Positions 5,552-32,290 of a stretch of 38,237 nucleotides of DNA are shown here, piece by piece (position 1 is the first letter of the stretch; every line of letters starts with the position of its first letter). The stretch is taken from the NCBI GenBank assembly GCA_018992685.1, contig JACVGT010000039.1:1-38237 (forward strand), written 5' to 3'. A program made the translations under genes and the position numbers. This DNA is from Theionarchaea archaeon. Its GTDB lineage: Archaea; Methanobacteriota_B; Thermococci; Methanofastidiosales; SZ-28-30. The notes beneath the pieces were generated by a model. The model worked only from the letters and a program-made list of their open reading frames with translations. It was not told where the DNA came from and did no database searches.

Positions 5552-6775
5552 TCATCTCGCTCTCCTCCTGACTGACAACCCTACCAACACAGCACCTGCA
5601 ATAAGTCCTGTTCCCAGGCAGAATCCTTTCTTCGCTTCCTGGATCTCCTGAACCCATGCATCACACTCAGCGACCTTCCGAGATCCATGCTCCAGATAGA
5701 TGTCCCTTGCTTTCTGAAAATACTCCAGAGCCTTCTCATAGTCTTCTTTTTCAAAAGCCTTTTGACCCTGTTCAAAGAGTGAATCTGCCGTTCGGACCTC
5801 CCTGACTACCTGAAGATTGCAGCCAAAGAGATTGATCTCGCGGTTCTTGTTAGAAGCTCTAAGGACCACCGTATCTCCATAGATTACTGGATTATATCCT
5901 CCAGAAATCCAGAATTCTTCTTTAGTCAGAAGGTCATATGCATGGATATCTGAATCATATTCATGAGGGGATTCAAAGACAACAATATTCCCGAATAGCT
6001 GCGGCAGCCTTTGATTGGCAGGTTCTACGATGAGAGGTAAGTCTTCCCCCGTCGATAAATCGTATCCATAAATATCGCAATCATTACTCCGACATTCACT
6101 CCATAACACAATCTGTCCAAAAATTGTAGGTTCGAATCGATACTGGGTATCTCTCGTCATCTGAAACTCTTCATTTCTGGAAAGATCAAACCCAAAAATA
6201 TCCCACGGGCCATTTCTATCATCTCCCCATACGACAATTGTCCCATAGATTGCAGGGTCTACTTGGTTGTGAGGATTGCCTGCTATTTGAAATTCCTCTC
6301 TTTCTGCAAGGTTGTACCCATAGATATCGGGCGTGCCGTTTCTATCATCTTCCCATACCACAATATCCCCATAGACAGCAGGGGACCGTTGGGCTTGTGG
6401 GTCATCAGTTATCTGGAATTCCTCTCTTTTTGCAAGGTTGTACCCGTAGATATCGAAATTGCCGTCTCTCTGATCCTGCCAGACCACGATGGTTCCATGA
6501 ACTGCTGGATTTCCCTGCCAGTTAGGATCATCAGTTATCTGGAATTCCTCTTTTGTTGCAAGGTTGTACCCATAGATATCAGTATTTACAGGAGAGATGC
6601 TTTTGGGATCCTGATTCCTCCAGTCTTCCCATACCACAATATCCCCGTACATGGCCGGTGCCACCTGCTTTTCCGGGTTATCTGTAATCTGGAATATGCC
6701 TGTGTCATCTGAGGGGATAAACTGCATCAACATGAGAAATACAATGATTGCTCCTAGCCTATCATAAGATATCAC
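5552..6775 (-). CDS. Cell-surface beta-propeller repeat protein, tandem paralog of 4112..5329
   Basis: Same architecture. The last ~110 codons are nearly identical at DNA level (offset 1440 bp). GAGGTG SD lies before the GTG start. Confidence 0.85.
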   Translation of the reverse strand: MISYDRLGAIIVFLMLMQFIPSDDTGIFQITDNPEKQVAPAMYGDIVVWEDWRNQDPKSISPVNTDIYGYNLATKEEFQITDDPNWQGNPAVHGTIVVWQDQRDGNFDIYGYNLAKREEFQITDDPQAQRSPAVYGDIVVWEDDRNGTPDIYGYNLAEREEFQIAGNPHNQVDPAIYGTIVVWGDDRNGPWDIFGFDLSRNEEFQMTRDTQYRFEPTIFGQIVLWSECRSNDCDIYGYDLSTGEDLPLIVEPANQRLPQLFGNIVVFESPHEYDSDIHAYDLLTKEEFWISGGYNPVIYGDTVVLRASNKNREINLFGCNLQVVREVRTADSLFEQGQKAFEKEDYEKALEYFQKARDIYLEHGSRKVAECDAWVQEIQEAKKGFCLGTGLIAGAVLVGLSVRRRAR

Positions 6776-8855: not shown

Positions 8856-11528
8856 ATGAAAGAAAAAAAGGTTACACTTCTCGTCCTGGCAATGTTGTTG
8901 AGTTTGGCCCTTCCTGCAGCTTTTTCTGAGAAGAGTGCATTCACTGTTGACTACACCTTCGAGCCAGTCAAGGCTGATGGGTGCCAGGGATGTGGCTTCT
9001 GGACAATCGAAGACACTCGAGTGTTGAATGAACCAGGAGCTCCGCTGATACCCTACAGGATGGGTACCATTCTTCTCCCCCAGGGCACAGAACTGAAGGA
9101 TGTCAAGGTACGGCATACGAAGCCCCTTGTTCAGTCTGGATTTGATCTTCCGTGGGGCCAGCCACCCTGCACATTCAGTGACAATCCCATGACTGTTGGC
9201 AAGAATGAAGGAATCTATGGCACAGATACTCCATATCCTGGCAAAACACTTGAGATCGTGGGCATCCAGTACTGCAGAGGATTCGCGCTCCTCTATATTC
9301 ACTTGTTCCCAGTCCAGTATATGCCCGAATCTGGATCAGTGAAATTCTATCCGAACCTGACTGTGGATATTCAATTCACCACGGGCAAAAAGAACAACCT
9401 GTACAGAGGACTGGCTTCTGACAAAGCAGCTGTGATGGACATGGTGGATAATCCCGAAGTCGTTGAAACATACGAAGATGGACCGTTCCCCCTGGCTTCT
9501 GAAGAGTACATTATTATTACCAGCGACACCATGCAGTCAACGTTCCAGACATTAGCCACCTATAAGATGGGATACGTGAATGGAGCTTCTGTCTATACAG
9601 TCTCCTGGATCATAGCCAACTACTCCGGGGTAGACAATGCAGAGAAAATCAGAAACTTCATCATTGATAAGTATACCAATAACGGTACCAAGTATGTCCT
9701 GCTGGGCGGAGACATCTCTGCTGTTCCATACAGAGGATTTTATGTGTCGACTGGTGGATACACTGATTATGACATGCTGGCCGACATGTATTTTGCCCAC
9801 TTGGATGGTTCCCACAATGAAGATGGTGACAGCTACTGGGGCGAGACTCATGACAGTGTCGACTTCGCTGCAGAGATTGCTGTTGGCAGAGCACCCTGTG
9901 AGACAGTAACGGAAGCTTCGAATTTTGTCAACAAGGTCATAGCACATGACCAGGCAGAAAAGCCCAATAAGGTACTGTTCCACCAGTCCAGAGTACAGTC
10001 TGGCAACACGCCTGACTCCAGATGCCTGGCCTGGAACTGTGCTCAATGGCTGCCTGACTACTATGACATGGAGTATCTCTTTGAGGAGGTAGATGGCGTG
10101 ACCAAGCAAGAGTGGATCGATGCGTGGGCAGCCGGCCCAGTTTCAGTAGTCCACATTGGCCACGGAAATTCTGAGGTCTACTACATCAACCTCGAAAAGG
10201 ATGTTGGCACAGTCAGCTGGTACGGCTCAGATGTGGCTGCGATGACCAACACGTTCTGGCCTTGGACCACAAGCGTCGCCTGCATCTGTGGACAGATCGA
10301 GTACAATGACTGCCTGGCAGAACAATATGTCAAGGACCCTGACAACGGAGCTATTGCAGCCATTTATAATGACAACTATGGCTGGTTCAACACGATTAAT
10401 GCATGCATGTACTCTGGCGAATTCTGCGAAATGGAGTTCAGAGCCTGTTGGAGCGACGGGGAAGGAAGAGCTGGTGATATGCTGAACAAGGCACGAAGCT
10501 ATCTGGCGTCGTCAGCACAGACGGACTCGACCTACCGGTGGTGCCACTATGAGAGGAATATTGTAGGAGATCCTCATATACGCGTGAAAAATGGTACCTC
10601 GGAGTCACCTCCTCCAGAAGGGAGTATTCAAATTACCACGCCCACTGCTGGATCAGAAGTTTCAGGTCTCGTCACAATCAAGATTTCCTCGACAGGATGT
10701 GTCAGCCTTGTGACGGGCTTGATTACCTATCAAGGGGTGCAAGTGCTCGCTGATGAATATGATCTTCTTCCTATAAACGGCCCGCCATTCATGTATTCGT
10801 GGGACACGCTTGAGCGAGACAATATGGGGGCGTTCAAGTACGAGAATGGAAGATACAAGATTTCAGTGAATGGATACTGTCCCAACTACTCCTCAGTTGT
10901 ATGTTCTAACAGTATTGAGGTCATTCTGAAGAACTACAGCGTCTGGCTGATCAGCCCGTCAGAGGGGGAAATCATCTCAGGTACGATCACGGTGGATGTG
11001 GATACTCTGGGAATGGACATGGTTGAGTTTTACATTGATGGGACCTTGAGGTCCACAGACACAGATGCACCCTTCCAGTTCAGTTGGGATACTACCCATG
11101 ATTCTGATGGTACTCACACTGTTGAGGTGAAAGGTTACTGCGAGGGATTGTTCAAAGATAGTTTCACTGTCACTGTCACCGTGGAGAATTACACCGACTA
11201 CTATGTAACTATTACAAATCCTTCAGAGGGTCAAACTGTCTCTGGAACTGTGAACATTACCACAACCACCAACTGCGAGGAAGTGCGGTTTTATGTCGAC
11301 GGCACCCTGGTGAGGGTTGATACAGCATCGCCATTTGACTACACCTGGGACACCACTGGATACTCTGATGGAACCCACACGATATTGGCTGAGGGATACA
11401 TTGGTGGCATGTTTATGGCTGAGGACTCCGTTGTATGCACGGTCAACAACAGTGGAGAGTGTCTCGGAACGATCCTGGTTGCCTTGCTCTTGCTACTAGG
11501 TGCTGCAGGAACCTGGAGAACACGGTGA
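8856..11528 (+). CDS. C25 family (gingipain-like) cysteine peptidase with propeptide, Ig-like repeats and C-terminal anchor
   Basis: GGAGGT SD and signal peptide. Propeptide motif EPGAPLIP; EYIIIT, YVLLGGD, ADMYFA, VGRAP; catalytic-dyad-like HIGHG and SVACICG; three Ig-like repeats (ITNPSEGQTVSG..V.FYVDG..PF.YTWDTT..DGTHT); tail GECLGT-TM-RTR. Confidence 0.9.
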   Translation: MKEKKVTLLVLAMLLSLALPAAFSEKSAFTVDYTFEPVKADGCQGCGFWTIEDTRVLNEPGAPLIPYRMGTILLPQGTELKDVKVRHTKPLVQSGFDLPWGQPPCTFSDNPMTVGKNEGIYGTDTPYPGKTLEIVGIQYCRGFALLYIHLFPVQYMPESGSVKFYPNLTVDIQFTTGKKNNLYRGLASDKAAVMDMVDNPEVVETYEDGPFPLASEEYIIITSDTMQSTFQTLATYKMGYVNGASVYTVSWIIANYSGVDNAEKIRNFIIDKYTNNGTKYVLLGGDISAVPYRGFYVSTGGYTDYDMLADMYFAHLDGSHNEDGDSYWGETHDSVDFAAEIAVGRAPCETVTEASNFVNKVIAHDQAEKPNKVLFHQSRVQSGNTPDSRCLAWNCAQWLPDYYDMEYLFEEVDGVTKQEWIDAWAAGPVSVVHIGHGNSEVYYINLEKDVGTVSWYGSDVAAMTNTFWPWTTSVACICGQIEYNDCLAEQYVKDPDNGAIAAIYNDNYGWFNTINACMYSGEFCEMEFRACWSDGEGRAGDMLNKARSYLASSAQTDSTYRWCHYERNIVGDPHIRVKNGTSESPPPEGSIQITTPTAGSEVSGLVTIKISSTGCVSLVTGLITYQGVQVLADEYDLLPINGPPFMYSWDTLERDNMGAFKYENGRYKISVNGYCPNYSSVVCSNSIEVILKNYSVWLISPSEGEIISGTITVDVDTLGMDMVEFYIDGTLRSTDTDAPFQFSWDTTHDSDGTHTVEVKGYCEGLFKDSFTVTVTVENYTDYYVTITNPSEGQTVSGTVNITTTTNCEEVRFYVDGTLVRVDTASPFDYTWDTTGYSDGTHTILAEGYIGGMFMAEDSVVCTVNNSGECLGTILVALLLLLGAAGTWRTR

Positions 11529-11787: not shown

Positions 11788-12645
11788 TCAGGAAGTACTC
11801 TCTTCAAGACTCAGTTTTCGATATCTCATTCGCCTCTGGTCATACCTCATGGGGTGTTCACAGCGGAATTCGAATACTATGTCATGCGGAATCTGTTCTG
11901 AGAACCAAGGCGCATAAAAGTCCCAATCACCGTCCACCTGGTTAGCACCTGTTGCAGTAACGTCTACCATGTAAGCTTCTCTATAATAAGTCCATGCTTT
12001 CCGATAATAGTCCATGGCTGCTTCAGAATTGCCCGCTTTCTGGTAGATGTAGCCAATCTCTTCATGCAGCCAGGCTCTTTCTATGGAATGGAGAGATTCT
12101 TTCTCAGGACCAATTCTTTCCCACGCTTCAAGAGCTTTTTGATTGTATGTTCGAGCTTCCCTCATGTTGTGAGCCTTCTCCCAGAAATCAGAAGCATATT
12201 GGAATAGTTGAGGCTGGAAGTATGTGCTTTCATCGGCCTCCTTCGAATGTTCCGCGGCCAATTCTGTATAAAGGGATTGGGCTAGGGTATGGTCCCCAAT
12301 TCCTTGGTAAACTCTGGCCAGCCAACGTTTAGTTGGGTAGGGATTGTTCAGAGCAGTTTCTCGTGCTTCTTCTTTTCTTCCGAGTGCAATCAAGCAATTC
12401 ACACGAATATGGATCCATGGATATTTAGATTGCTCTTCATATTCCAGCGTTTTCCTATACTGGGACTGTGCTTTCTCTCTTTCTCCCAGAAGCCTGTAGA
12501 TACGGGCAACATCAAAACTGTAGAACGTAACTGTAGAAAAATCCTTTCTCTCAAGTTCTTGTTGCAGTCTGGAGCAAGATTTATGTAAGAGCCTCTTGAG
12601 TTCTCGTCTTGTGAAGAGTGCTTCTGCTATTTTGGAGTATTCCAT
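11788..12645 (-). CDS. TPR-like cytoplasmic protein, copy 3 (putative immunity protein)
   Basis: 285 aa, no signal peptide. TPR-like AWLHEEIGYIYQKAGNSEAAMDYYRKA. Paralog of the two genes upstream. Confidence 0.8.
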   Translation of the reverse strand: MEYSKIAEALFTRRELKRLLHKSCSRLQQELERKDFSTVTFYSFDVARIYRLLGEREKAQSQYRKTLEYEEQSKYPWIHIRVNCLIALGRKEEARETALNNPYPTKRWLARVYQGIGDHTLAQSLYTELAAEHSKEADESTYFQPQLFQYASDFWEKAHNMREARTYNQKALEAWERIGPEKESLHSIERAWLHEEIGYIYQKAGNSEAAMDYYRKAWTYYREAYMVDVTATGANQVDGDWDFYAPWFSEQIPHDIVFEFRCEHPMRYDQRRMRYRKLSLEESTS

Positions 12646-12656
12646 TGTATCATCTC

Positions 12657-12850
12657 TTAATACGTACTGATCAGTTTGAATCCTTCACATAGCCATTTGC
12701 CAATGATAGTGGAGTATTCTTCCTTGGTTGTATCGTACATGTAGGGTGAATGACAATCCGCTCTGTATGCTGTTCTCAGTTCGCAAAATTCTCTAGAGTT
12801 TTTCCTTATAAATACTTCCCACTCCTTTCCCGCACTATCGAAGAAATGAC
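12657..12850 (-). pseudogene. Orphan C-terminal fragment (variant) of the 15597..17303 protein
   Basis: DSAGKEWEVFIRKNSREFCELRTAYRADCHSPY...IIGKWLCEGFKLISTY aligns without gaps to the last ~62 aa of the 568-aa protein. Confidence 0.85.
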
Positions 12851-12989
12851 ATTGGTGAAATCTATGAAGTGAGGGACAAGTGGTCTTTTCCCCCACCCGT
12901 TTGCCCACCGAATTCGGAGTTTGTCAAGGAGAGAAGACAATATTCTTCAGGGACAAGAGCTTCTACTGAGGATCAGCATTGTGTCTAAT

Positions 12990-13230
12990 CTTCTCTTGCA
13001 GCATGAGAATCTGTATTGTAGTCGCTTCGAGTCAGACTTCCATAGCCGCTCAAACCCAAAGTCAATCATGTGCAATTCTGGAAGCTGCATGTGGAACCAC
13101 TGTGCATAAAAATCCCGATCACCATCTACCTGATGAGCACCAATGGCAGTAGAATCTTCTGTACAGGCTTTTCTATACGTGATCTTGGCCTTTTGATAGT
13201 ATTTCATGGCAACTTCAAACTGTACAATGG
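12990..13230 (-). pseudogene. Relic 3' part of a divergent TPR-protein allele
   Basis: FEVAMKYYQKAKITYRKACTEDSTAIGAHQVDGDRDFYAQWF...KRLQYR aligns to the C-terminal third of the TPR proteins. The 5' part is absent. Confidence 0.75.
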
Positions 13231-14115
13231 TCAGGAAAGGCTGTCCCATGATCCATCAGGGTCTTCACTCTTTCTAGTACTGAGCTTCCGATATCTCATT
13301 CGCCTCTGGTCATACCTCATGGGGTGTTCACAGCGGAATTCGAATACTATGTCATGTGGAATCTGTTCTAAGAACCAAGGCGCATAGAAATCCCAATCAC
13401 CATCGAATAGATGATCCACTGTGGCCTCTAAATCCTCTGTATAAGCTTCTTTGTAATAGACCCATGCCTTCCGATAATAGTCCATGGCTGCTTCAAAATT
13501 GCCCGCTTTCTGGTAGATGTAACCAACCTCTTCGTGCAGCCAGGCTCTTTCTATGGGACGGAGAGACTCTTTCTCAGGACCAATTCTTTCCCAAACTTCA
13601 ACTGCTTTTTGATTGTATGTTCGAGCTTCCTTCATATTGCCAGCTTTTTCCCAAAAGTCAGAAGCATATTGGAATAGTTGTGGCCGAAAGTATGTGCTCT
13701 CATCAGCTTCTCTTGACTGTCCTGTTGCCAATTCCGTATAGAAATCTTGGGCAAGATCATAGTCTCCAAGTTCCTCATACAGATGTGCCAACAGGTTTTT
13801 CGTCGGATAAGGATCGTTCAAGACAACTTCTCGTGCTTCTTCTTTTCTTCCGAGTGCAATCAAGCATTTTCTCCTTATCTCCCTCCATTGATGTTTCGAT
13901 TGTTCAATGTATTCCAGCGTTTTTTCGCACTGGGACTGTGCCTTCTCTGGTTCTCCTAAGAACTGGTAAAGGCGGACTATATCAAAACTATAAAACGTAG
14001 CTATTGAGAAGTCTTTTCTCTCAAGTTCTTGCTGGAGTTCGGAGCAAGACTTCTGCAAGAGCCTCTTGAGTTCTCGTTTTGTGAAAAGCGCCTCTACTAT
14101 TTCGGAATATTCCAC
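13231..14115 (-). CDS. TPR-like cytoplasmic protein, copy 2 (putative immunity protein)
   Basis: True start is most likely GTG 14115 (AAGGTG SD; aligns with MEYSE of the paralogs; 294 aa), not 14208 as in the ORF track. Confidence 0.8.
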   Translation of the reverse strand: MEYSEIVEALFTKRELKRLLQKSCSELQQELERKDFSIATFYSFDIVRLYQFLGEPEKAQSQCEKTLEYIEQSKHQWREIRRKCLIALGRKEEAREVVLNDPYPTKNLLAHLYEELGDYDLAQDFYTELATGQSREADESTYFRPQLFQYASDFWEKAGNMKEARTYNQKAVEVWERIGPEKESLRPIERAWLHEEVGYIYQKAGNFEAAMDYYRKAWVYYKEAYTEDLEATVDHLFDGDWDFYAPWFLEQIPHDIVFEFRCEHPMRYDQRRMRYRKLSTRKSEDPDGSWDSLS

Positions 14116-14126
14116 AACGTCACCTT

Positions 14127-14320
14127 CTAGTACATGCTGATTTGCTTGAATTTTTCGTACAGCCATTTTGCAATGATTGTAAGACGGTTGCTTCCGTCTT
14201 CTCTGCACTTATACGGTGGGGGGCAATCCACTCTGTACGCTGTTCTCAGTTGATAAAACTCTTCAAAGTATTTCCTTATAAGCACTGCCCATTCCTTTCC
14301 TGCACTATCGATGAAGTGAC
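14127..14320 (-). pseudogene. Orphan C-terminal fragment (hybrid variant) of the 15597..17303 protein
   Basis: Manual translation HFIDSAGKEWAVLIRKYFEEFYQLRTAYRVDCPPPYKCREDGSNRLTIIAKWLYEKFKQISMY*. No start codon. Confidence 0.85.
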
Positions 14321-14459
14321 ATCGGTGAAATCTATGAAGTGAACAACAAGTGAATTTTTTCCGTTATCCATCTACCCACCGAACTTAGAGTATGTCAAGG
14401 AGAGAAGACAATATTCTTCAGGGACAAGACCCTCTACTGAGGATCAGCATTGTGTCTAA

Positions 14460-14700
14460 TTTTCCCTTTCAGTATGAGAATTCTGTATTGCAGTCGCTTC
14501 GAGTTAAACTCCTATGGCCGCTCATACCCAAAGTCGATCATGTGCAATTCTGGAAGCTGCATATGGAACCACTGTGCATAGGCGTCAATCACCATCTACC
14601 TGATGAGCACCAGTGGCAGTAGGATCTTCTGTACAGGCTCTTCTATACGTGATCCTGGTCTTTTGATAGTATTTCATGACAACTTCAAACTGTACAACGG
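14460..14700 (-). pseudogene. Second relic 3' part of the divergent TPR allele, with stop codons and a frameshift
   Basis: FEVVMKYYQKTRITYRRACTEDPTATGAHQVDGD* / AYAQWFHMQLPELHMIDFGYERP*EFNSKRLQYR. Confidence 0.75.
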
Positions 14701-15585
14701 TCAGGAAACGCTGTCCCATGATCCATCAGTGTCTTCACTCTTTCTAGTACTGAGCTTCCGATATCTCATCCGTCTCTGATCATACCTCATTGGATGTTCA
14801 CAACGGAATTCGAACACAATGCCATACGGAATCTGTTCTGAGAACCAAGGCGCATAGAAATCCCAATCACCATCAAATTGATTAGCGCCAGTTGCAGTAA
14901 CATCTATCATGTAAGCATCTCTGTAGTAGGCCCAGGCTTTTCGATAATAGTCCATGGCTGTTTCAGAATCGCCCGCTTTCTGGTAGATATAGCCAATCTC
15001 CTCATGCAACCAGGCTTTTTCTATTGAAATGTGAGATTCTTCCCCGGATCTGACTTTTTCCCACGCTTCAACTGCCTTTTGATTGTATATTCTAGATTCC
15101 CTCATATTACTAGCCTTTTCCCAGAAATCAGAAGCATACTGGAACAGTTGAGGCTGGAAGTTCGTGCTCTCATCGGCCTCCTTCGAATGTTCCGCGGCCA
15201 ATTCTGCATAGTAAGTCTGAGCAAGATCATGGTCTTCAAGTTCCTCATATAGGTACGCGAAAAGTCTTTTGGTCGGATAAGGATCGCTTAAAACGATCTC
15301 TTGTGCTTCTTCTTTTTTTCCAAGAGCAATTAGGCATTTTCTCCATATCCCCCTCCATTGATGTCTCGATTGCTTAATGTATTCCAGCGTTTTTTCGCAC
15401 TGGGACTGTGCCTTCTCTGGTTCTCCTAAGAACTGGTAAATGCGAACCATGTCAAAACTATAAAACGTGGCAATCGAGAGATCCTTTTTTTCAAGTTCTT
15501 GCTGGAGTCTGCAGTAGGACTTCTGTAAGAGCCTTTCAAGTTCTCGTTTTGTGAATAGTGCTTCTACTATTTCAGAATATTCCAT
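14701..15585 (-). CDS. TPR-like cytoplasmic protein, copy 1 (putative cognate immunity protein)
   Basis: 294 aa. Starts 11 nt after the stop of the 568-aa gene, with an AAGGTG SD and no signal peptide. Confidence 0.8.
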   Translation of the reverse strand: MEYSEIVEALFTKRELERLLQKSYCRLQQELEKKDLSIATFYSFDMVRIYQFLGEPEKAQSQCEKTLEYIKQSRHQWRGIWRKCLIALGKKEEAQEIVLSDPYPTKRLFAYLYEELEDHDLAQTYYAELAAEHSKEADESTNFQPQLFQYASDFWEKASNMRESRIYNQKAVEAWEKVRSGEESHISIEKAWLHEEIGYIYQKAGDSETAMDYYRKAWAYYRDAYMIDVTATGANQFDGDWDFYAPWFSEQIPYGIVFEFRCEHPMRYDQRRMRYRKLSTRKSEDTDGSWDSVS

Positions 15586-15596
15586 AATGTCACCTT

Positions 15597-17303
15597 CTAG
15601 TAGATACTAATTTGCCTGAATTTTTCGCACAGCCATTTTGCAATGATTGTAAGACGGTTGCTTCCGTCTTCTCTGCACTTATACGGTGGAGGGCAATCCA
15701 CTCTGTACGCTGATATGAGTTGATAAAAGCCCTTATAGTATTTTTCTATGAATACTGCCCATTCCTTTCCTGCATCATCAACGTAGTAGTAGATGTATCG
15801 CCCCGTTTTTGCATTGTAGAACAGCTTCGATGCTCGTTCTATAATTTCCTGAATCATATGCTTATCATCAAGTATGGCTTGGTGACTGCTCGCTACACAC
15901 TCCTTTGTTGACTGTGCCCTCTGCGGAATGTGTGCCTGTCCATATGAACCTTCCACAACGATAACTACCTGTTTCCCGTCAATCCAGCCAGGGACTGCTG
16001 GTGGCCATTCGTATCCGACAGAAGGAGCAGTGACAACTAACAGGAAGACTGCTCCCACCACTCCAACAGCTATGGAAAGTACGGTCACGCATGCATCCAG
16101 GATGGCATAAAGAATGGCCAAGATATCTGGAAGAGTCAAAGTCCACCCGATTTCACCGAGTTCTGTATACACAAACATTGGAAGCATCACCAAGAGCTCC
16201 ATAAAGCTGAGATCTGGCTTCTTCACAAAAACGAGAGCAACCCCCAGATTGTTTGTCTCATCCAGTTCTTCCACATCACCCACAAAATCACCTAGTGGGC
16301 TGGCCGTGTACGCGGAAGCACTCTCTTCTGGCACCTGAAGAGCAGAGTATGACCGTATGTCAGATAGTGAACACTCTCTCAGAGCATCCGTATACACCTC
16401 AATCTCGGAGATCCCCAGGGCTGTGTCACCATTCAAAGCGGTGAGGGCTCCGCAGTGTATCTGCAGCCCAATAAAGAAATCTGCCATATATTCTGCTTCT
16501 CCTTTCCGGAGTTCCTGCTCTGCTGCCTTGTACACCTCTTTGGAGAATGCCTTGACATGTTCCAACGAGGGCTGGCTTTCAGACATTGCCTGAATGGCCT
16601 CAACCAGCTTTTCTTCAGCATTCTGAAGTCTTGGCCCATCATCCTTTTTCTTTCCTTTTCCCGGGGTTTCCTCTAATAAGAGCTTTAATGCAGCTATGGA
16701 TAACGTCGTCTGGATATCCAGTAACTCTGTCTGCTGCTCTTTTACCACCTGTGATGCAGTATGGAGCGTGGAATAGTGACCTACCAGAATGTCCTGGAGC
16801 TCCGAGATCTGGTCATCTGTGAATCCTGCCTGGTAGAGGCGGTCCCGTTCCTCAGGGGCAAATCCTCTGACTGCATAGTTGTGAAAATCATTGAAAGTGG
16901 CTAACCACTCTATGATCTCAGCTATATCCTCATCTGTATATCCGAGATCAGTCAAAGATTCCTTCCGGCTGTCAGATAACCCCATGAGGAGAATGATTTC
17001 CAGGTGGTTCTGGAGACTCACCTGTAGGGCATCATGGATATCCTGGGAAGCATTCTGCGCTTTTCCTATCTGGAGGGCAGTAGTCTCAATTGCCTGCAGT
17101 GTATGCTGATAGACGGCCTGCGTATTCTTTCCCTGCTGCAATTCCATGTATAAGAGGGTCACATCTTTCTGGAGAGAATAGAGGTCCTCGCGGTATTCTC
17201 TATACACGGGGAAATCAGTGTCTTCACAATCTCCAGGAAGAGCAGGATTGTTACAGAATGCCAGGATGAGTATGAGAGTCAGAGAGAGTGCTGCAGCCTT
17301 CAT
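15597..17303 (-). CDS. Secreted protein with helical N-region, hydrophobic segment and putative C-terminal toxin (BECR-like RNase) domain
   Basis: Signal peptide MKAAALSLTLILILAFC; long helical region; ~60-aa hydrophobic stretch; C-terminal ~135 aa with GQAHI..R, an aromatic beta-meander and LISAY. The toxin call is inferred from architecture and context. Confidence 0.65.
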   Translation of the reverse strand: MKAAALSLTLILILAFCNNPALPGDCEDTDFPVYREYREDLYSLQKDVTLLYMELQQGKNTQAVYQHTLQAIETTALQIGKAQNASQDIHDALQVSLQNHLEIILLMGLSDSRKESLTDLGYTDEDIAEIIEWLATFNDFHNYAVRGFAPEERDRLYQAGFTDDQISELQDILVGHYSTLHTASQVVKEQQTELLDIQTTLSIAALKLLLEETPGKGKKKDDGPRLQNAEEKLVEAIQAMSESQPSLEHVKAFSKEVYKAAEQELRKGEAEYMADFFIGLQIHCGALTALNGDTALGISEIEVYTDALRECSLSDIRSYSALQVPEESASAYTASPLGDFVGDVEELDETNNLGVALVFVKKPDLSFMELLVMLPMFVYTELGEIGWTLTLPDILAILYAILDACVTVLSIAVGVVGAVFLLVVTAPSVGYEWPPAVPGWIDGKQVVIVVEGSYGQAHIPQRAQSTKECVASSHQAILDDKHMIQEIIERASKLFYNAKTGRYIYYYVDDAGKEWAVFIEKYYKGFYQLISAYRVDCPPPYKCREDGSNRLTIIAKWLCEKFRQISIY

Positions 17304-19015
17304 AACAGCCCCTCCGGAGGATCAGCGATTGCCTGGATGATGTACCCTCCAGAATAGAGGGGAATCCAGGTGTATGTGATGGTGATACTCTCGTCTCTTG
17401 GTAATACTTCAATAAACACTCTGTGGACCACCTCGTCATCAATGAGGAGGATAACCCAGAAGTCCTCAGCATCGGCCTTTCCCTCATTTCTGACGGTCAC
17501 TGAGATTATGACCTCTTCCTTGATGTTGGGGCTCGCGGGATTCAGGGAAATATCTTCATTCAGTATGACGAGATCGGGCAATGCTTTGTGGGTTACAGCA
17601 AAGCTCCCATCAAAGAGCGCTTTGTAACACGTGCCTTCTCCTTCAACGATTATGACTCCACACACAGAGTACAATCCAGAAGAAGAGGGCGTATACTCAG
17701 CAGAATAGGTGCCGTCCTCATTATCCACCCAGGAGAGTGGGGTATAGGTGTCATCTGGGAGGTACAGGAGTGACGTAACCTCCCCACCTGAGAGGAGTTC
17801 TCCCTGTTCACTGAAAACTGTCAGCAGAAAGTCTACGGGCTCATCCAGGAAAGATTCTCCAATTTTAAGGATTGCAAAGGCGTTCTCGCAGTCCCTGACG
17901 TAAAAGGTTCCTCCTGCTTCCTCTAAGTAACACGAATCTGTGGAAATGTCTGCCGTAATGGAGTAGGACCCCTCATGTTCTGGCAGGTAAGACGCAGAAT
18001 AGATCCCTGGGGCACTGGAAGTCCACTCTAAATCTATAATCTCAGAGCCATCAGGTAAAGAGAGCACGCTGGCTATTTCCCCATCCAGCGGTTGGCCTCC
18101 CTCATCAGCAGCTGTAACGGTGACATGCACGCACTCTCCCAGGTCATACTCAGGAATGTCCTTGTCAAATTCCAAAGCCAGAGTGGCGTGATAGCACACA
18201 CCAAACGTGGTGGATGCCTGGACATCTTCATAGAATCGTTTCTTCACATAGACATGTGCTGTATATTGGCCTTCCTTTGGATCAGCCTGGACGCCCTGGT
18301 CATTGGTGAAATCCCACATGTAATAGTGACATTCCATTGCAGGGTTCCAGGACCAGTCTTCTGGCGTAATTGTTTTCTTTGTGGAATCGGGTAGCGCAAT
18401 ATCTCCTTTGATGCTGTCAGCCTGGATGTAGTCTCCTGTCTCTTCATCTGTTACCTGCAGGACTACCCGTGCAAAGGAGTCCCCACTTGAGTACTTTGGT
18501 TTGTTGGTCTTGAGATCAGCATGCATGTGGTGAGCACCTGTTCCATCATCGGGGAAGTACCACAAGGTGTTGTCTCCAACCAGGAAGGAGGGAGAAGTGA
18601 CCACATACTTTCCAGGTGGTATATAGGTGAGGGGTACATCTTCAATATTGAAATCAGGGTTCCAGGGCTGGACATACACCAGTTCTGCCGTATACAAAAT
18701 CGGAATGTTTTCAGTACAATTTTCAGGGCAATCATAATCGGGATAGGAACGGAAATTAAGGACACCCCCGATCTGCTGCTCATTGCTGATCCCAAATACC
18801 CAGAGAGGACGTCCAAAGACATAGACTGAAGGTACCCATTCCTCATAACGGCACATGTATCCTGAGGGGCACTCCTCACATTCATGGACGTGCCAGTGCT
18901 CTGGCATGGAGATGTGCCACTCCCTGGGTGTACCATAGGGAAGGGATTCAACATTATGGGAAGATGCAAGAGCAGCAATCAATATGAGAAACAGGAAGAT
19001 ATATCCTTTTTTCAT
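17300..19015 (-). CDS. Secreted multi-Ig-like protein ending in a C-terminally incomplete CARDB domain
   Basis: Likely start MKKGYIFLFLILIAALAS at 19015. Repeated Ig-like modules (LPDG..., G.YSA.Y.P...G.YS); LPDLVI..DISLNPASP...ISVTVRNEGKADA...ITYTW...GGYIIQAIADP. Stop overlaps the next start (ATGA). Confidence 0.8.
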   Translation of the reverse strand: MKKGYIFLFLILIAALASSHNVESLPYGTPREWHISMPEHWHVHECEECPSGYMCRYEEWVPSVYVFGRPLWVFGISNEQQIGGVLNFRSYPDYDCPENCTENIPILYTAELVYVQPWNPDFNIEDVPLTYIPPGKYVVTSPSFLVGDNTLWYFPDDGTGAHHMHADLKTNKPKYSSGDSFARVVLQVTDEETGDYIQADSIKGDIALPDSTKKTITPEDWSWNPAMECHYYMWDFTNDQGVQADPKEGQYTAHVYVKKRFYEDVQASTTFGVCYHATLALEFDKDIPEYDLGECVHVTVTAADEGGQPLDGEIASVLSLPDGSEIIDLEWTSSAPGIYSASYLPEHEGSYSITADISTDSCYLEEAGGTFYVRDCENAFAILKIGESFLDEPVDFLLTVFSEQGELLSGGEVTSLLYLPDDTYTPLSWVDNEDGTYSAEYTPSSSGLYSVCGVIIVEGEGTCYKALFDGSFAVTHKALPDLVILNEDISLNPASPNIKEEVIISVTVRNEGKADAEDFWVILLIDDEVVHRVFIEVLPRDESITITYTWIPLYSGGYIIQAIADPPEGLL

Positions 19016-19116
19016 CTTTTCATCTCCCAGCCTCCTGTAAAGGTAGTATGATCCACAAAAAAATCGGAAAAAGCGCATTTCAATATCTTGATTTTATCCA
19101 CCACGTAGATGTCCAT
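19012..19116 (-). CDS. Small upstream ORF, 34 aa (MDIYVVDKIKILKCAFSDFFVDHTTFTGGWEMKR)
   Basis: GGAGAGGTGG SD at 19130-19121, TTTATATG box at 19156-19149, and an ATGA stop/start overlap with the downstream gene. Confidence 0.4.
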   Translation of the reverse strand: MDIYVVDKIKILKCAFSDFFVDHTTFTGGWEMKR

Positions 19117-19253: not shown

Positions 19254-22200
19254 ATTTCAATCCTAACATAGTCTGATTTCAACACTGTCGAAAATAATGA
19301 CAATCCAGAAGATTTCGAACTTTCAATCCTAACATAGTCTGATTTCAACTGATGTAGGCTGTTGCGAAATGGTTACTGAAACTTATCTTTCAATCCTAAC
19401 ATAGTCTGATTTCAACAGCTCCCTTATCGTATGTCATGTCATCACCAGACAACTTTCAATCCTAACATAGTCTGATTTCAACATTCACACTGCAACAGAT
19501 ACACGATGAGATTCAGAGCTTTCAATCCTAACATAGTCTGATTTCAACAATTAGGAAATGTATTAAATAATGCGCAGGATGAACTCTTTCAATCCTAACA
19601 TAGTCTGATTTCAACCTGACTGCCATTGATATGGGAGACCAGCGAGCACCTTTCAATCCTAACATAGTCTGATTTCAACAATACCATTTGAGGTGGGTTA
19701 AATGGCATCAGTTAACTTTCAATCCTAACATAGTCTGATTTCAACCCCCCTGGCGGTTTATCTTGGATTTTCTTCACTTTTCCTTTCAATCCTAACATAG
19801 TCTGATTTCAACAAAAAAGAAGGATATGATGGCGAACGGTGTGCAGACTTTCAATCCTAACATAGTCTGATTTCAACACACAAAACTATGTCCCAGATGC
19901 CCTAATTTCATCTGCCTTTCAATCCTAACATAGTCTGATTTCAACTTTCAACGTCACCCTCTGCAAAAATGTAGTCCTGCCTTTCAATCCTAACATAGTC
20001 TGATTTCAACACTTGATGGAACAAAGCACAAAGCAATCAATCGCAGACTTTCAATCCTAACATAGTCTGATTTCAACTGTTCAGTTTCATCGATATATCA
20101 AAGAAGATAGAAGCTTTCAATCCTAACATAGTCTGATTTCAACCACGCTTCAACAGGTAATAAACGACACTGAATCTTCCTTTCAATCCTAACATAGTCT
20201 GATTTCAACTGTCTGACAGTCATGGTTGTTGCATTCTTCGTTATGCTTTCAATCCTAACATAGTCTGATTTCAACAATTTCTTGAATTTCTCAATCCTGG
20301 TAACTATGATTCTTTCAATCCTAACATAGTCTGATTTCAACGATCTACGGTTTGACGTCCTGATGAACGCCTATTTCCCTTTCAATCCTAACATAGTCTG
20401 ATTTCAACGATCTACGGTTTGACGTCCTGATGAACGCCTATTTCCCTTTCAATCCTAACATAGTCTGATTTCAACGATGGATAACGCAATGCAACTAGAT
20501 AGACAAAACGGACCATCTGCTTTCAATCCTAACATAGTCTGATTTCAACCGGCGATGTACCACGATGGCGATATTTACAATCCAACTTTCAATCCTAACA
20601 TAGTCTGATTTCAACTCTATTATACACATGACACTAGATTTTGTAGCAGACTTTCAATCCTAACATAGTCTGATTTCAACTCTGTACAGTTTTTGATATA
20701 CTATTTATAAACTTTGCTTTCAATCCTAACATAGTCTGATTTCAACTTCTCCACAGGTACAATAACACGAAACAAAGAAGACCTTTCAATCCTAACATAG
20801 TCTGATTTCAACGGAGGAGTGAGAACATGACCATAAAGGAGATATACGCTTTCAATCCTAACATAGTCTGATTTCAACCTTTGAAGTAGCCTTGAATATT
20901 GCTCTTGAAGACCCTTTCAATCCTAACATAGTCTGATTTCAACAGGGAAAAAAGGTGATCTTCCCGGTAAATGAACCAACTTTCAATCCTAACATAGTCT
21001 GATTTCAACCTTGAAGCTCCTGCAGTCCCGTTCTTGCTGTTTCTTCTTTCAATCCTAACATAGTCTGATTTCAACTCGAAAAAGCGCGTCAGAAACAGAA
21101 AGGTTATAGACTTTCAATCCTAACATAGTCTGATTTCAACGTCGAATACCATTTTAAATCTATGTTACAGATTTGCTTTCAATCCTAACATAGTCTGATT
21201 TCAACTTTCCACGTTTTGGCTTCTAATTTTGCTGTGAACATCTTTCAATCCTAACATAGTCTGATTTCAACGATATACAGTCTCAGAAGATGATTTATGC
21301 CAGATTTCTTTCAATCCTAACATAGTCTGATTTCAACTCTGTACAACACCTTCTTTATCCTTGAAAACGAGACCCTTTCAATCCTAACATAGTCTGATTT
21401 CAACCCTTGCTGATAACGATAATTTGTCTTCCCATCCAATCTTTCAATCCTAACATAGTCTGATTTCAACGTATTTCAGAGATTAAAGAAGAACTGCAGG
21501 AGATTACTTTCAATCCTAACATAGTCTGATTTCAACTAATACATCTTTAAATCCTGTAAATCTTTCTTCTTTCTTTCAATCCTAACATAGTCTGATTTCA
21601 ACCTAATGTGGGAATCCAGAAGAGTGACCACAGCACCCTTTCAATCCTAACATAGTCTGATTTCAACTTATTCTTTTTTTGGTGGGAATGGGAATATTTA
21701 TATCTTTCAATCCTAACATAGTCTGATTTCAACTGTAACCTGTTCTGCTTGTGCGCTCTTTCTGAGCACTTTCAATCCTAACATAGTCTGATTTCAACAC
21801 TTTATCACCTCCTATTCCAGTCTTATGAATCCACTTTCAATCCTAACATAGTCTGATTTCAACCAGTTCATGAAACAATTCGGCCCAGTGCGTGACCCTT
21901 TCAATCCTAACATAGTCTGATTTCAACTCGGGGGGCACGGCTGGACTGGGCGAACCTGACAGCTTTCAATCCTAACATAGTCTGATTTCAACATATCCTC
22001 CCATCCCGCATAAGCGAGCATATCATCGCTTTCAATCCTAACATAGTCTGATTTCAACCTCGCATTAGATCTACTTCCCCTCCTCTCTTACACCTTTCAA
22101 TCCTAACATAGTCTGATTTCAACATCAGCTTGTCAAAACTGAGAATGAACAGCTTGTAGCCTTTCAATCCTAACATAGTCTGATTTCAACAATTGGTCTC

Positions 22201-22980
22201 ATGTCTTTCATTGGATCCTCTCCTTCCTTTCAATCCTAACATAGTCTGATTTCAACAGTACCCGGATGTTTCATGTGACGTATTTCGTGGTACTTTCAAT
22301 CCTAACATAGTCTGATTTCAACTTCGATTCCTCCTGAATGGGTGATAATCTTTGACGACTTTCAATCCTAACATAGTCTGATTTCAACCTTTTCCTTTCT
22401 TTTCCTGGTCGTGTAGTATTCTGACTTTCAATCCTAACATAGTCTGATTTCAACATGCTAGAGGTATAGAATGTCTGTAACTACTGCTGCTTTCAATCCT
22501 AACATAGTCTGATTTCAACAATTACAAGAAATTAAACAAAATCAAAAGGTTCTAACTTTCAATCCTAACATAGTCTGATTTCAACACGGTGTCTTTTTGT
22601 CAGCGTAGAAATCCCAGATTTCTTTCAATCCTAACATAGTCTGATTTCAACATTACTCATTCATTTCATCCCCAGATGCTTAGCCTTTCTTTCAATCCTA
22701 ACATAGTCTGATTTCAACGTAGATGTAAGAGTCACAGGCGAATATAAGATCTTCTTTCAATCCTAACATAGTCTGATTTCAACAAAATCATTGAAGACTT
22801 GAGAAATTACGGTATTCTCCTTTCAATCCTAACATAGTCTGATTTCAACAATTCTACACGATGCCAATACCTGTGTTTTACGTAACTTTCAATCCTAACA
22901 TAGTCTGATTTCAACAATCACAATGGGGGTGGCATGGATGCGGCCGGAATCTTTCAATCCTAACATAGTCTGATTTCAAC
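19254..22980 (-). CRISPR. CRISPR array 1: 57 repeats, 56 spacers; repeat GTTGAAATCAGACTATGTTAGGATTGAAAG
   Basis: 30-bp repeat with ~34-44 nt spacers, counted by hand. The ATTGAAAG 3' end and the leader on the right give the minus orientation. Confidence 0.98.
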
Positions 22981-23107: not shown

Positions 23108-23365
23108 AATATTAGTAGGCTCAACCTTGGGTTCTCCAATGAACCTCCGATTTACCAGCGCCTCATCTCTCACCGTGTAGATAATAACCGAATCTTCTTT
23201 CTTCTCAATAATCTCTTCAACTCCGAGTTCGATCTCTTTCAACCGTGCCTTTGTCACTTCACCCTCCAGTACTGAATTCTGCATCCAATTCAAGTACTGT
23301 TTTAGAAAGATACGCACCTTGTCTACTCTCTCCACACTCACATCATACACGACAATGACATACAC
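23102..23365 (-). CDS. cas2: CRISPR-associated endonuclease Cas2
   Basis: YVIVVYDV...LKQYLNWMQNSVLEG...DSVIIY. GTG start at 23365 overlaps the cas1 stop (alternative start 23374). Confidence 0.95.
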   Translation of the reverse strand: MYVIVVYDVSVERVDKVRIFLKQYLNWMQNSVLEGEVTKARLKEIELGVEEIIEKKEDSVIIYTVRDEALVNRRFIGEPKVEPTNIL

Positions 23366-24339
23366 TACCACCACATCCTGAATGCCTTGTACGTCTGCAC
23401 GCCCAGAAAATGCTTTATCAACTTATAACACTCCAGTCGAATCAGCCTCTGATAAGAAACGTTCCGCCCCAGACTCCTGTGCTTCACGGTAGTTTTCAGT
23501 CTCTGGTCAAAATGACTCAAGAACACTTTCTTCCCTTCCTCATTCAGTAAACAGTTGTTCACGTCTTTGCGGAAATGGTCCTCTGTAATAATGCCCTTGT
23601 TCAAGACCTTGAAAATCACTCTGTCCCCGAGAAAAGGCTTGAAGACTTCACTCAAGTCCAGGCTTAGCGAGAACCGTCTTTCAAAGGGTTCGTGCAGGAA
23701 GCTCACACTGGGGTGCAATTGAGTATTATAGATCTCTGACAACGTTGCAGAGTACACCAGTGCGTTGCTAAAACTGATAAGACAGTTCACCATATTCTCT
23801 GGAGGTTGTCGTGTCCTCTTCTCAAACCGGAAATTCTCAGGCAATATCCTGTCAAAACACTGGTAGTACAGTCCCCTGATATTCCCTTCAATACTCATCA
23901 ACTGGGGAATACTCCCGGCATCAGGCACTTTTTCTGACCAGTCTTCAACCTGCCCAACTGTGTCTTCCAGATCGTAGTACCTCAGATTCCTTACAATGTT
24001 GTCAAACCCTCCCGAGAGTAGTTCCTTTGCCAGGTCTAGTCTTTTCTCACTGTCGAGATAGTGGGCTGCCTGCCTTACCACGATGTCTCCTGAAACCAGA
24101 GATTCTCGTGGATAGAACGACCCCTCAAAGAACCCATAGTGGTTGAAAAAGTGGATGCACACCCCATTCTTTGCCAGGTACGACAAGACACCAGAAGTCA
24201 CAGAAACTCTTCCATATACAAAAATCGTGTGAATTTTGTGTATGGGAAGCAGGAATTTCCTTTCCCTGCTCACAAAGTATACCGTGTTCTCTTTCCTCAT
24301 CAATTTCCCATCCTTTACCAAGTAAAAATTTACTTTCAT
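23365..24339 (-). CDS. cas1: Type I-B Cas1
   Basis: GKLMRKENT, HFFNHYG, LMSIEG, PPENMVNCLISFSN, SFLHEP, SLSLDLSEVFKP, ECYKLIKH, and an F..WW end. ATG 24339 overlaps the cas4 stop. Confidence 0.97.
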   Translation of the reverse strand: MKVNFYLVKDGKLMRKENTVYFVSRERKFLLPIHKIHTIFVYGRVSVTSGVLSYLAKNGVCIHFFNHYGFFEGSFYPRESLVSGDIVVRQAAHYLDSEKRLDLAKELLSGGFDNIVRNLRYYDLEDTVGQVEDWSEKVPDAGSIPQLMSIEGNIRGLYYQCFDRILPENFRFEKRTRQPPENMVNCLISFSNALVYSATLSEIYNTQLHPSVSFLHEPFERRFSLSLDLSEVFKPFLGDRVIFKVLNKGIITEDHFRKDVNNCLLNEEGKKVFLSHFDQRLKTTVKHRSLGRNVSYQRLIRLECYKLIKHFLGVQTYKAFRMWW

Positions 24340-24842
24340 CACATCACCCAGCACAATTCATAGTAACTGCATTTCTTGCAGTAAGGTTTTTTCTCAGGGG
24401 ACGGGGGAGTTCCTGCAGAGACAACCTGTACAATATCTTTGAGAATACCTTCAATCTCTTCTTCCTGAGAGCTTTCCAAAACGATTTTCTCTCTCTTTCG
24501 AAGAAGGGGATAGTTTATTACCCCTGTGGCTACTATCCCTTTCTGTTTCAGGTAGTACAGGTAGTACAGCAATTGGTAGATGTGTGATTTTTCCATTTTT
24601 CTGGAACGTTTTACTTCGTGGAGAACTACCCCTTTCCCCTCTTCTATGAAATCAACATTTATTGGTCCAATTCTCATTTCCTTTTCCCTCTTGTAACTGG
24701 TCTGATGCAGCAGCTTCCCCATGAACACTGCATCACTGGTATGTTCCATTGCAGAGTAGTGAGAGAATAACCACAACTTGCTCTTACAAATGAAGTAGTA
24801 GTTCACCTGCACCCCCGTTATTGTAGATTCCTTGGTAAGCAT
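24339..24842 (-). CDS. cas4: Cas4 exonuclease
   Basis: ITGVQVNYYFICKSKLWLF, EVKRS, QLLYYLY, CKKCSYYELC (Fe-S cysteines). Start chosen at MLTKES with an AGAGGA SD. Confidence 0.95.
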   Translation of the reverse strand: MLTKESTITGVQVNYYFICKSKLWLFSHYSAMEHTSDAVFMGKLLHQTSYKREKEMRIGPINVDFIEEGKGVVLHEVKRSRKMEKSHIYQLLYYLYYLKQKGIVATGVINYPLLRKREKIVLESSQEEEIEGILKDIVQVVSAGTPPSPEKKPYCKKCSYYELCWVM

Positions 24843-24923
24843 TAGTTCCTCTTTGTAGCAATGATATAAATACATTTCCTTTGGAGAGACAAATACTTAA
24901 AATCAGAGTGGGGAGAGCAAAAC

Positions 24924-27497: not shown

Positions 27498-27509
27498 AAG
27501 AACCTTTTG

Positions 27510-28334: not shown

Positions 28335-28335
28335 G

Positions 28336-32204: not shown

Positions 32205-32290
32205 TCCATCAACTTGCAAGGAAATGAGGATAAGAACTATTTAAACTTTTCCCTAAGTATGAAAAGGACAAGTCCAATGTGTGATCGTGT

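Follow-up and report, generated by a model that had tools for sequence, protein, structure and literature searches.

A candidate polymorphic-toxin-like locus with TPR genes and orphan C-terminal fragments in a Theionarchaea archaeon

Closest described systems

Bacterial polymorphic toxins, such as the contact-dependent inhibition (CDI) pair CdiA-CT/CdiI, Rhs and MafB, combine an exported, conserved N-terminus with a replaceable C-terminus. According to passages of Zhang et al. 2012 (PMC3482391), the classical systems, and most immunity superfamilies, are rare or absent in archaea. A gene cluster resembling them marks contig JACVGT010000039.1 of a Theionarchaea archaeon (assembly GCA_018992685.1); the whole stretch of 38,237 nucleotides (nt) that was analyzed is called the window hereafter. 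The cluster encodes a protein with immunoglobulin-like (Ig) and CARDB domains, a 568-aa protein ending in a C-terminal domain (CTD), and three tetratricopeptide repeat (TPR) proteins, among which lie two start-less copies (orphan tips) of the end of the 568-aa gene. The cluster may represent a lineage-specific, polymorphic-toxin-like conflict system of Methanofastidiosia/Theionarchaea with candidate TPR immunity, a reading to which we assign an even chance of being correct. It is favoured because the layout matches that of the bacterial systems in five ways, and recurs independently in the family. In both, the N-terminus is conserved and exported, the C-terminus is replaceable, a small partner gene is located downstream, start-less C-terminal fragments are displaced along with partners of their own, and recombination is mosaic. 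A candidate BECR-type C-terminal domain is a further likeness. The initial annotation of the window had already compared the cluster to polymorphic toxin loci, in which a full toxin, its immunity gene and orphan modules follow each other, and replaceable C-terminus, downstream partner and orphan fragments are all in place.

The differences from bacterial polymorphic toxins are several. No TPS, FHA, VENN, YD-repeat, PAAR, LXG or MafB-N element is found; an Ig/CARDB partner gene is obligatory; a hydrophobic segment directly precedes the CTD; the partner is a TPR protein of 285–294 aa. In the clade to which the window belongs, exchange concerns a portion of a single conserved domain instead of entire, unrelated toxins. 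A 568-aa protein outside any Pfam family, having an Ig protein and TPR genes as neighbours, sets the locus apart from both CDI (CdiB/CdiA/CdiI) and Rhs/YD systems. The putative delivery parts (Ig/CARDB partner, helical body lacking relatives, hydrophobic segment) are unlike those of any bacterial system.

The nearest published archaeal concept that we found is the VARTIG module of Thermococcales, as presented in passages of Makarova et al. 2021 (PMC8416519). Like the present cluster, VARTIG is a variable archaeal locus headed by the gene of a secreted CARDB/Ig protein, and its variation is driven by recombination; its authors liken the organization to that of polymorphic toxin systems. In GTDB naming the lineage of the window belongs to the class Thermococci, as the VARTIG hosts do. 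The hypervariable part of VARTIG is the C-terminal Ig domain of a large multi-Ig protein, which carries a DNNxxxGG C-terminal motif. The Ig protein of the window has ..AIADPPEGLL as its C-terminus, and variation concerns the tip of another, helical protein. TPR, orphan cassettes, Theionarchaea and Methanofastidiosa have 0 occurrences each in PMC8416519. A description of the 568-aa family was not found in the literature searched; an earlier listing in the 2019 mBio survey of archaeal polymorphic toxins, or in supplements, is possible.

Organization of the locus

The whole cluster resides on the minus strand, in the order Ig gene, 568-aa gene, TPR1, tandem units (Table 1). The ATG of the 568-aa gene and the stop codon of the Ig gene overlap by 4 nt, and a GGTGA motif, similar to a Shine-Dalgarno sequence, is found between the stop codon of the 568-aa gene and the ATG of TPR1. 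All the elements named in the initial annotation (Ig gene, translationally coupled 568-aa gene, TPR genes, tips) were retrieved, and the 568-aa protein has the predicted layout, i.e. a helical body, a hydrophobic stretch at aa ~366–430, and an alpha/beta domain at aa 432–568 in which the motifs GQAHI..R and LISAY are found. The tips had been viewed as start-less variants of the last ~63 codons of the gene. Their matches, at 14130–14321 and 12660–12848, cover aa 505–568 (77% identity) and 506–568 (49% identity) of the protein; the tips have no start codon, and are free of stops.

Tips and TPR genes are part of a 1470-bp direct repeat, found in about 2.7 copies which are 74–91% identical at the nt level. 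In each unit, the final ~60 codons of the 568-aa gene are combined with one intact TPR gene and with decayed remains of another, of a fourth TPR type. Such repetition is far beyond chance. TPR1, TPR2 and TPR3 are all intact, match TPR_12/TPR_8, and lack an N-terminal hydrophobic segment. Homology between the full gene and the orphan tips begins sharply at the codons for D-x-A-G-K-E-W (~15782): identity is 40/109 upstream of this boundary, 55/73 and more downstream. Each tip has lost one conserved cysteine, C559 being changed to Y in tip 1 and C543 to Y in tip 2.

The fragments of the fourth TPR type, overlooked in the initial annotation, measure ~70–90 codons and derive from the C-terminus of the protein; the one at 13007–13222 is located inside a 100-aa open reading frame (ORF; 12947–13249). 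Since a fragment of this type is found in each unit, TPR1 and TPR2 end in a junction-derived tail. TPR3 keeps the canonical C-terminus of the family (..RKLSLEESTS). An intact relative of the fourth, more divergent type is P0126, from a Methanofastidiosia metagenome-assembled genome (MAG). P0126 and P0117 are TPR-family proteins of one MAG, have consecutive accession numbers, and share a contig of 103 kb; that MAG has its 568-aa gene, with the accompanying TPR gene, on a separate 8.4-kb contig. The two proteins may form an immunity-like TPR pair outside the main locus.

Related loci

Homologous clusters have been analyzed in 13 loci from metagenomes and genomes, and in further loci from two congeneric genomes, all mapped by tblastn and with CTD and TPR profiles. 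Duplicate loci were counted once (L004=L008=L023, L013=L014, L017=L022, L009=L026=L028). The pairing of Ig and 568-aa genes is conserved: in 11/11 distinct loci for which upstream DNA is available, the gene immediately upstream of the 568-aa homolog encodes an Ig homolog. CTDs featuring both H458 and H474 are encoded in seven distinct loci (window, L004, L011, L012, L013, L015, L009). A TPR gene is found 9–150 nt downstream in all seven, in line with the linkage expected from the initial annotation, and an orphan CTD fragment follows the TPR gene in six. The 5' break points of the orphan fragments differ, falling at positions 4, 21, 67, 75, 93 and 99 of the CTD profile. Behind the orphan, a further TPR gene or remnant is present in 5/7 loci; it is intact in the window and in G046, and survives as a truncated gene or a remnant in L013, L012 and L004. 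The L012 orphan resembles the expressed tip of L015. Recombination repeatedly moves a module made by the 3' part of the candidate toxin gene and the TPR gene, and leaves displaced, start-less CTD fragments with TPR genes downstream.

Five distinct loci encode CTDs lacking the histidines. No match to the TPR family was found in the fetched DNA of four of them (L016, L017, L018, L020). Histidine-less loci carry a conserved convergent gene, encoding a secreted, C-terminally anchored protein of 520–580 aa (L022:9673-11415, minus strand; L021:5390-6952, minus strand; also in L016, L018 and L020). The protein contains about nine to ten 55-aa repeats (ISTHPDN..PQIAVD.SGNSYVVW..EIYWVK), and a small membrane protein is usually encoded next to it.

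Table 1. Position of the elements of the cluster in the window
Element	Coordinates	Strand	Remarks
Ig-fold protein ORF	17300..19078	-	592 aa; Filamin-like and C-terminal CARDB domains (Pfam)
568-aa candidate toxin or carrier (P0001)	15597..17303	-	ORF; no Pfam family
Hydrophobic segment of the 568-aa protein, aa ~366-430	16014..16208	-	Kyte-Doolittle scan, AF2 helices
CTD of the 568-aa protein, aa 432-568	15600..16010	-	AF2 model; candidate BECR-like RNase toxin domain
TPR1, 294 aa	14701..15585	-	Pfam TPR_12/TPR_8; candidate cognate partner/immunity protein of the expressed CTD
Decayed P0126-like TPR C-terminus fragment, copy 1	14458..14692	-	TPR-profile positions 206-285; one stop per piece
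Orphan tip 1, start-less, last ~63 codons of the 568-aa gene	14127..14321	-	E 3.8e-30, 77% identity
TPR2, 294 aa, GTG start at 14115	13231..14115	-	intact; Pfam TPR_12/TPR_8
P0126-like TPR C-terminus fragment, copy 2	13007..13222	-	TPR-profile positions 207-278, E 1.4e-24
Orphan tip 2, start-less, last ~63 codons of the 568-aa gene	12657..12851	-	E 1.1e-12, 49% identity
TPR3, 285 aa	11788..12645	-	intact; Pfam TPR_12/TPR_8

Variation, recombination and selection

Sequence identity among the 7 closest proteins decreases towards the C-terminus, from 87.5% (aa 1–504) to 72.5% (aa 505–568) and 62.8% (aa 541–568). Replacement is more extensive in distant members of the family. P0059, P0062 and P0064 have a common signal peptide, a helical body and an E-x-x-E-x-N-N motif, and differing C-termini. 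Over 433 aa P0059 and P0062 have 71% identity; the 140–220 aa that follow are unrelated, the break point being located just before the hydrophobic segment. A survey of relatives for one N-terminus associated with different C-termini, as envisaged in the initial annotation, therefore gave a positive answer.

Copies present in the window swap sequence blocks among themselves, and are recombination mosaics. The expressed tip and orphan 1 are identical at 80/82 nt (98%) in one block, at 55/73 in the adjoining block. The closest pair switches along the 1470-bp unit, e.g. from 49/50 vs 21/50 in one stretch to 35/50 vs 47/50 in another. Pairs of TPR genes have a ratio of nonsynonymous to synonymous divergence (dN/dS) of 0.12–0.16 at a synonymous divergence (dS) of 0.8–1.2; copies are therefore old, and TPR genes constrained. 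All three TPR genes are under purifying selection in this genome, and their retention would fit a role in protection against the alleles of neighbours. The dN/dS of tip pairs is 0.16–0.33, and most tip divergence therefore arose under constraint.

A joint that goes back 1464 nt inside the TPR genes was found in three DNA sequencing runs (four were mapped, as short contigs only), and seems to indicate mosaic or extra TPR copies in related strains. Another joint (12782->15747), found in one contig, could have marked a strain in which a full gene carries a tip2-like end. It was discounted: the short side (29 nt, with 24 other letters between) falls in the GKEW region common to all copies.

The C-terminal domain

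Modelled alone from a 48-row alignment with AlphaFold2 (AF2), the CTD yields a predicted local distance difference test score (pLDDT) of 96.6 and a predicted template-modelling score (pTM) of 0.90. Its elements are, in order, a beta-hairpin, three helices, a four-stranded meander, a C-terminal helix and a short strand; helices at 23–31, 37–48 and 52–59, and strands at 62–66, 71–77, 83–92 and 95–103 (model numbering) were assigned by DSSP. In the BECR fold, as defined in passages of PMC3482391, a four-stranded meander sheet comes after a helical segment at the N-terminus, and the helices-plus-meander core of the modelled CTD matches this layout. The CTD has helices and meander in common with BECR toxins (BrnT, 3u97; colicin D tRNase, 5znm and 1tfk; RelE/ParE/HigB/YoeB; CdiA-CT, 5i4q, 8ey4 and 6d7y; phage PBECR2/3), as well as conserved His and Arg residues within the helical part. 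Unlike these toxins, it has a beta-hairpin added at the N-terminus, is extended at the C-terminus by a helix and a strand, with four conserved cysteines (C469, C537, C543, C559), and matches no sequence family. Small free cytoplasmic toxins paired to small DNA-binding antitoxins, as in type II toxin-antitoxin (TA) systems (RelE/BrnT), are different again, because the CTD is the end of a 568-aa protein provided with a signal peptide, and its partner is a TPR protein of 294 aa.

BECR toxins are the nearest structures, and the nearest named language-model clusters, at noise-level scores. In a search independent of Foldseek and covering 48,161 chains, the best Z was 5.5, for BrnT (76 aligned residues, root-mean-square deviation 3.4) and colicin D (85 aligned residues, deviation 3.1); no chain reached Z>=8, and a best Z of 7–8 is typical of models with no true match, so that the score of the CTD is not evidence by itself. 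The weak Foldseek list includes entries for HigB2, BrnT, PfiT and CdiA-CT, all at E >=0.07. Toxins of TA, colicin or CDI systems, as judged by title, account for 10 of the 14 top rows and for 24 of the 50 rows listed, and such one-sided make-up of the list obtained with the model is suggestive. Neighbours of the CTD in language-model space for which a family name is available are the PBECR3, PBECR2 and MuF_C clusters (0.85–0.87); similarities lower than 0.9, as these, are to be taken as leads only.

H458, R462 and H474 are conserved in the TPR-linked clade. Across 48 CTDs, H458 is found in 32, R462 in 26, H474 in 32 and both histidines in 31; their roles are candidate roles only. H474 is changed to Tyr in 15 of the 48. 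C543 and C559 are jointly lost in P0034, and CTDs of the clade lacking the histidines contain 4–10 Cys in ~140 aa.

Several of these results weigh against the polymorphic-toxin-like reading. The structural match looked for in the initial annotation did not emerge, as Foldseek gave nothing at E<=0.001 when the CTD model was compared to the PDB (best E 0.07), and with Z at most 5.5 all the structural scores are at the level of noise. The PBECR2/3 values are below the similarity threshold. A search of PDB sequences with the family profile had its best E (0.053) on an unrelated protein, and the last 137 residues of the 568-aa protein match no Pfam family, toxin and immunity families included, even at E<=10. 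The G..HI..R motif, held in the initial annotation to be a sign of BECR toxins, is present in the window, but 17/48 family members do not have both histidines. Taken together, a BECR RNase fold is weakly supported: the topology agrees with it, and BECR toxins come nearest both among structures and in language-model space, but every score is at noise level.

The 568-aa protein and its Ig partner

A signal peptide, a helical body (aa ~30–313), a linker (aa ~337–365), the hydrophobic segment and the CTD follow one another in the 568-aa protein. The linker, modelled with low confidence, includes a CARDB-like E-x-D-E-T-N-N strand motif. An alignment of 35 sequences highlights, in the signal peptide, a conserved Cys and an invariant Pro; in the helical body, Cys284, invariant too; and then the E-x-D-E-T-N-N motif, the hydrophobic stretch and the CTD. 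The signal peptide (aa 1–24, ~17232–17303 in the window) terminates in a conserved Cys-(Asp/Asn)-(Ile/Val)-Pro motif. The Cys is found in most of the 35 sequences, and the invariant Pro is P20. The motif is not a canonical lipobox, position -1 being Phe, Met, Val or Leu, and may be an unrecognised processing or lipidation signal.

The family includes 47 proteins according to a word-index search, and 53 at E<=1e-3 in a full scan of 1.84 billion representatives. Sources, where named, are Methanofastidiosia and Theionarchaea only. Members were found in 3/101 genomes sampled from the class, all three of the same genus as the window; in the genome to which the window belongs, matches are restricted to the full gene and the two tips. 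The 568-aa protein matches no Pfam family at E<=0.1, and a language-model atlas search with the helical body (aa 28–366) gave no usable match. The full-length AlphaFold model is mediocre (pLDDT 71.6); a Foldseek search with it gave nothing at E<=0.001, and the matches listed are mostly unrelated membrane transporters.

A single membrane span would place the CTD in the cytoplasm of the producer, a hairpin outside. Besides the signal peptide, one segment exceeds 1.6 on the Kyte-Doolittle scale in 11/12 members examined. A strongly hydrophobic helix at aa ~405–427 just precedes the CTD, and is itself preceded by weaker hydrophobic helices; AF2 helices span aa 367–381, 391–403 and 408–424 (pLDDT 50–74). 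The pattern of cysteines, i.e. the joint loss of C543 and C559 and the abundance of Cys in some members, weakly favours an exported, disulfide-stabilised CTD, an argument of little force for a strict anaerobe.

The Ig protein matches the Pfam families CARDB (E 3e-13, aa 501–587) and Filamin-type Ig repeat (E 4.2e-10). Its true start is likely an internal Met at ~19015 (MKKGYIFLF...), which would provide the protein with an N-terminus similar to a signal peptide. In the 568-aa protein, residues ~337–365 (..DFVG.VEE.DETNN.GV..VFVK.., 16209–16295 in the window) are poorly modelled in the monomer (pLDDT 31–48). This is the sole part of the family profile that also matches large repeat proteins; five of these, of 1040–3183 aa, have 4–8 matched stretches apiece. 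The region resembles the last strands of CARDB, and might complete the Ig partner, or dock onto it, via strand addition.

Proposed function and alternatives

If the cluster is a polymorphic-toxin-like system, the Ig/CARDB protein and the 568-aa protein, made from translationally coupled genes, would both be exported by the Sec pathway, and would probably form a pair at the cell surface. The CTD would be delivered into neighbouring cells, to act as a nuclease through the candidate residues H458, R462 and H474. The TPR protein encoded directly downstream, predicted to be cytoplasmic, would neutralise the CTD by binding it. The last ~60 residues are the best candidate specificity surface, because they are the most variable part among close strains. 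A more elaborate proposal, which we consider doubtful, views the orphan tips as a silent, pilS-like reservoir of cassettes, able to rewrite the last ~60 CTD residues by gene conversion at the GKEW-coding boundary, while the TPR genes are kept as an immunity array. Toxin and immunity specificity would then change by a pilS-like mechanism, the rewritten tip would be the proposed immunity-binding surface, and delivery would depend on archaeal parts (Ig carrier and hydrophobic insertion segment) which owe nothing to bacterial secretion systems.

Other observations have to be set against a toxin/immunity system. It had been proposed that tips decay while immunity genes stay intact. This holds for the window, in which three TPR genes are intact and the tips are start-less and have lost Cys residues, but in 3/7 two-histidine loci the second TPR gene is itself a remnant or truncated. 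C-terminal variation is similarly split: distant members swap C-termini and the tips of close members vary more than the bodies, but CTDs of the clade to which the window belongs are all homologous versions of a single conserved domain rather than an assortment of unrelated toxins, and in the mid clade tip and body are equally conserved (60.0% vs 59.5%), so that the excess of tip variation is limited to the close clade. TPR copies exhibit no excess of amino-acid changes, and their divergence (~75–78% identity, all pairs) does not track that of the tips (77% vs 49%). Hydropathy indicates one strong transmembrane helix, with which the CTD would sit inside the cytoplasm of the producer. Histidine-less members have no identified immunity gene, and the ancestral role of the family may not have been toxic; the histidine-less locus L021 has two TPR genes, located 2.3 kb downstream.

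Part of these data could be accommodated by a variable surface complex of the Ig protein and a membrane-anchored 568-aa protein, adhesin- or receptor-like and devoid of toxic function, in which the CTD is a binding module, its exposed tip is varied by recombination with silent partial copies as in pilE/pilS, variation is driven by viruses or neighbours, and the TPR protein serves in the cytoplasm as a chaperone or assembly factor whose gene was duplicated together with the tip. Silent, start-less 3' cassettes which exchange blocks with the expressed gene would be expected in such a complex; the CTD is one domain conserved across the clade, and its likeness to RNase toxins is at noise level. 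Histidine-less paralogs, mostly lacking a linked TPR gene and found beside a secreted repeat protein, suggest a basal surface role. However, a chaperone gene need not travel with each tip, nor are three redundant chaperone copies expected under purifying selection at dS ~1. The recurrent association of CTD fragment and TPR gene in 6/7 loci is the layout of a toxin/immunity cassette, and TPR genes are directly linked only to CTDs with two histidines, in 7/7 such loci. On balance we regard a surface complex as unlikely. Still less probable is a membrane-tethered, intracellular toxin-antitoxin or abortive-infection sensor, whose helical body and Ig partner would be outside, and whose RelE-like domain, inside and linked by a single span, would be inhibited by the TPR protein until a signal from the envelope is received (e.g. 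virus attack). In its favour, most members have a single strongly hydrophobic helix ahead of the CTD, a signal peptide is missing from the TPR protein, type II TA toxins are among the nearest structures, and a CRISPR array of 57 repeats, accompanied by type I cas genes, is located ~175 nt from the locus. Yet the CRISPR-Cas neighbourhood is not conserved (none was found in the other fetched loci with 4 cas queries and the repeat), and PADLOC gave no match for the Ig or the 568-aa protein, and for TPR1 only one at E 0.007. The paired C543/C559, and the 4–10 Cys of the histidine-less clade, fit an exported domain better, if weakly for an anaerobe, and it is intercellular toxins, not TA modules, that typically have swapped C-termini and orphan cassettes.

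Tandem duplication of the 3' end of the 568-aa gene and of the TPR gene by unequal crossing-over, giving extra copies with no selected role, is what the exact 1470-bp periodicity could suggest, as could tips that are start-less and have each lost one conserved Cys. Such neutral debris is the most improbable of the explanations: the copies are old, and yet three TPR genes have remained intact at low dN/dS, the dN/dS of the tip pairs (0.16–0.33) too points to divergence mostly under constraint, and a similar arrangement with different break points is found in 6/7 independent loci.

To our knowledge, competition and kin recognition among uncultured sediment archaea are largely unexplored. For the polymorphic-toxin-like reading, the cluster offers a small, delimited candidate, made by two carrier genes, a 137-aa domain modelled at very high confidence and three partner genes. 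If the reading is true, delivery would follow a route independent of bacterial secretion machines, and TPR proteins would be newly used as immunity factors. Should the CTD be non-toxic, the cluster would retain its value as a case of an archaeal surface protein varied through cassettes.

Neighbouring genes

Two CRISPR arrays are found in the window, at 19254–22980 (57 copies) and 32357–33772 (22 copies), with a 30-nt repeat and a period of ~66 nt. They flank a type I cas operon (23365–32219, minus strand) encoding Cas1, Cas4, Cas3 helicase, Cas5 and Cas7/DevR (Pfam). The first CRISPR repeat is ~175 nt from the start of the Ig ORF. A conserved defence-island context was considered and rejected, as no match to cas homologs or to the CRISPR repeat was found in the other fetched loci.

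On the other side, and convergent with the TPR array, an 890-aa secreted C25 peptidase (gingipain-like, E 4.2e-42) with three Big_7 Ig domains and a C-terminal hydrophobic tail is encoded at 8856–11528 (plus strand). Its candidature as processor of the 568-aa protein was rejected, no C25 homolog being found in any related locus, and the peptidase is probably not part of the system. Two adjoining ORFs, at 4112–5329 (405 aa) and 5552–6775 (407 aa) on the minus strand, gave no Pfam match at E<=1e-5; one short region of L012 (~4720–4980), located upstream of the L012 Ig gene, is matched by both (45–49% identity).

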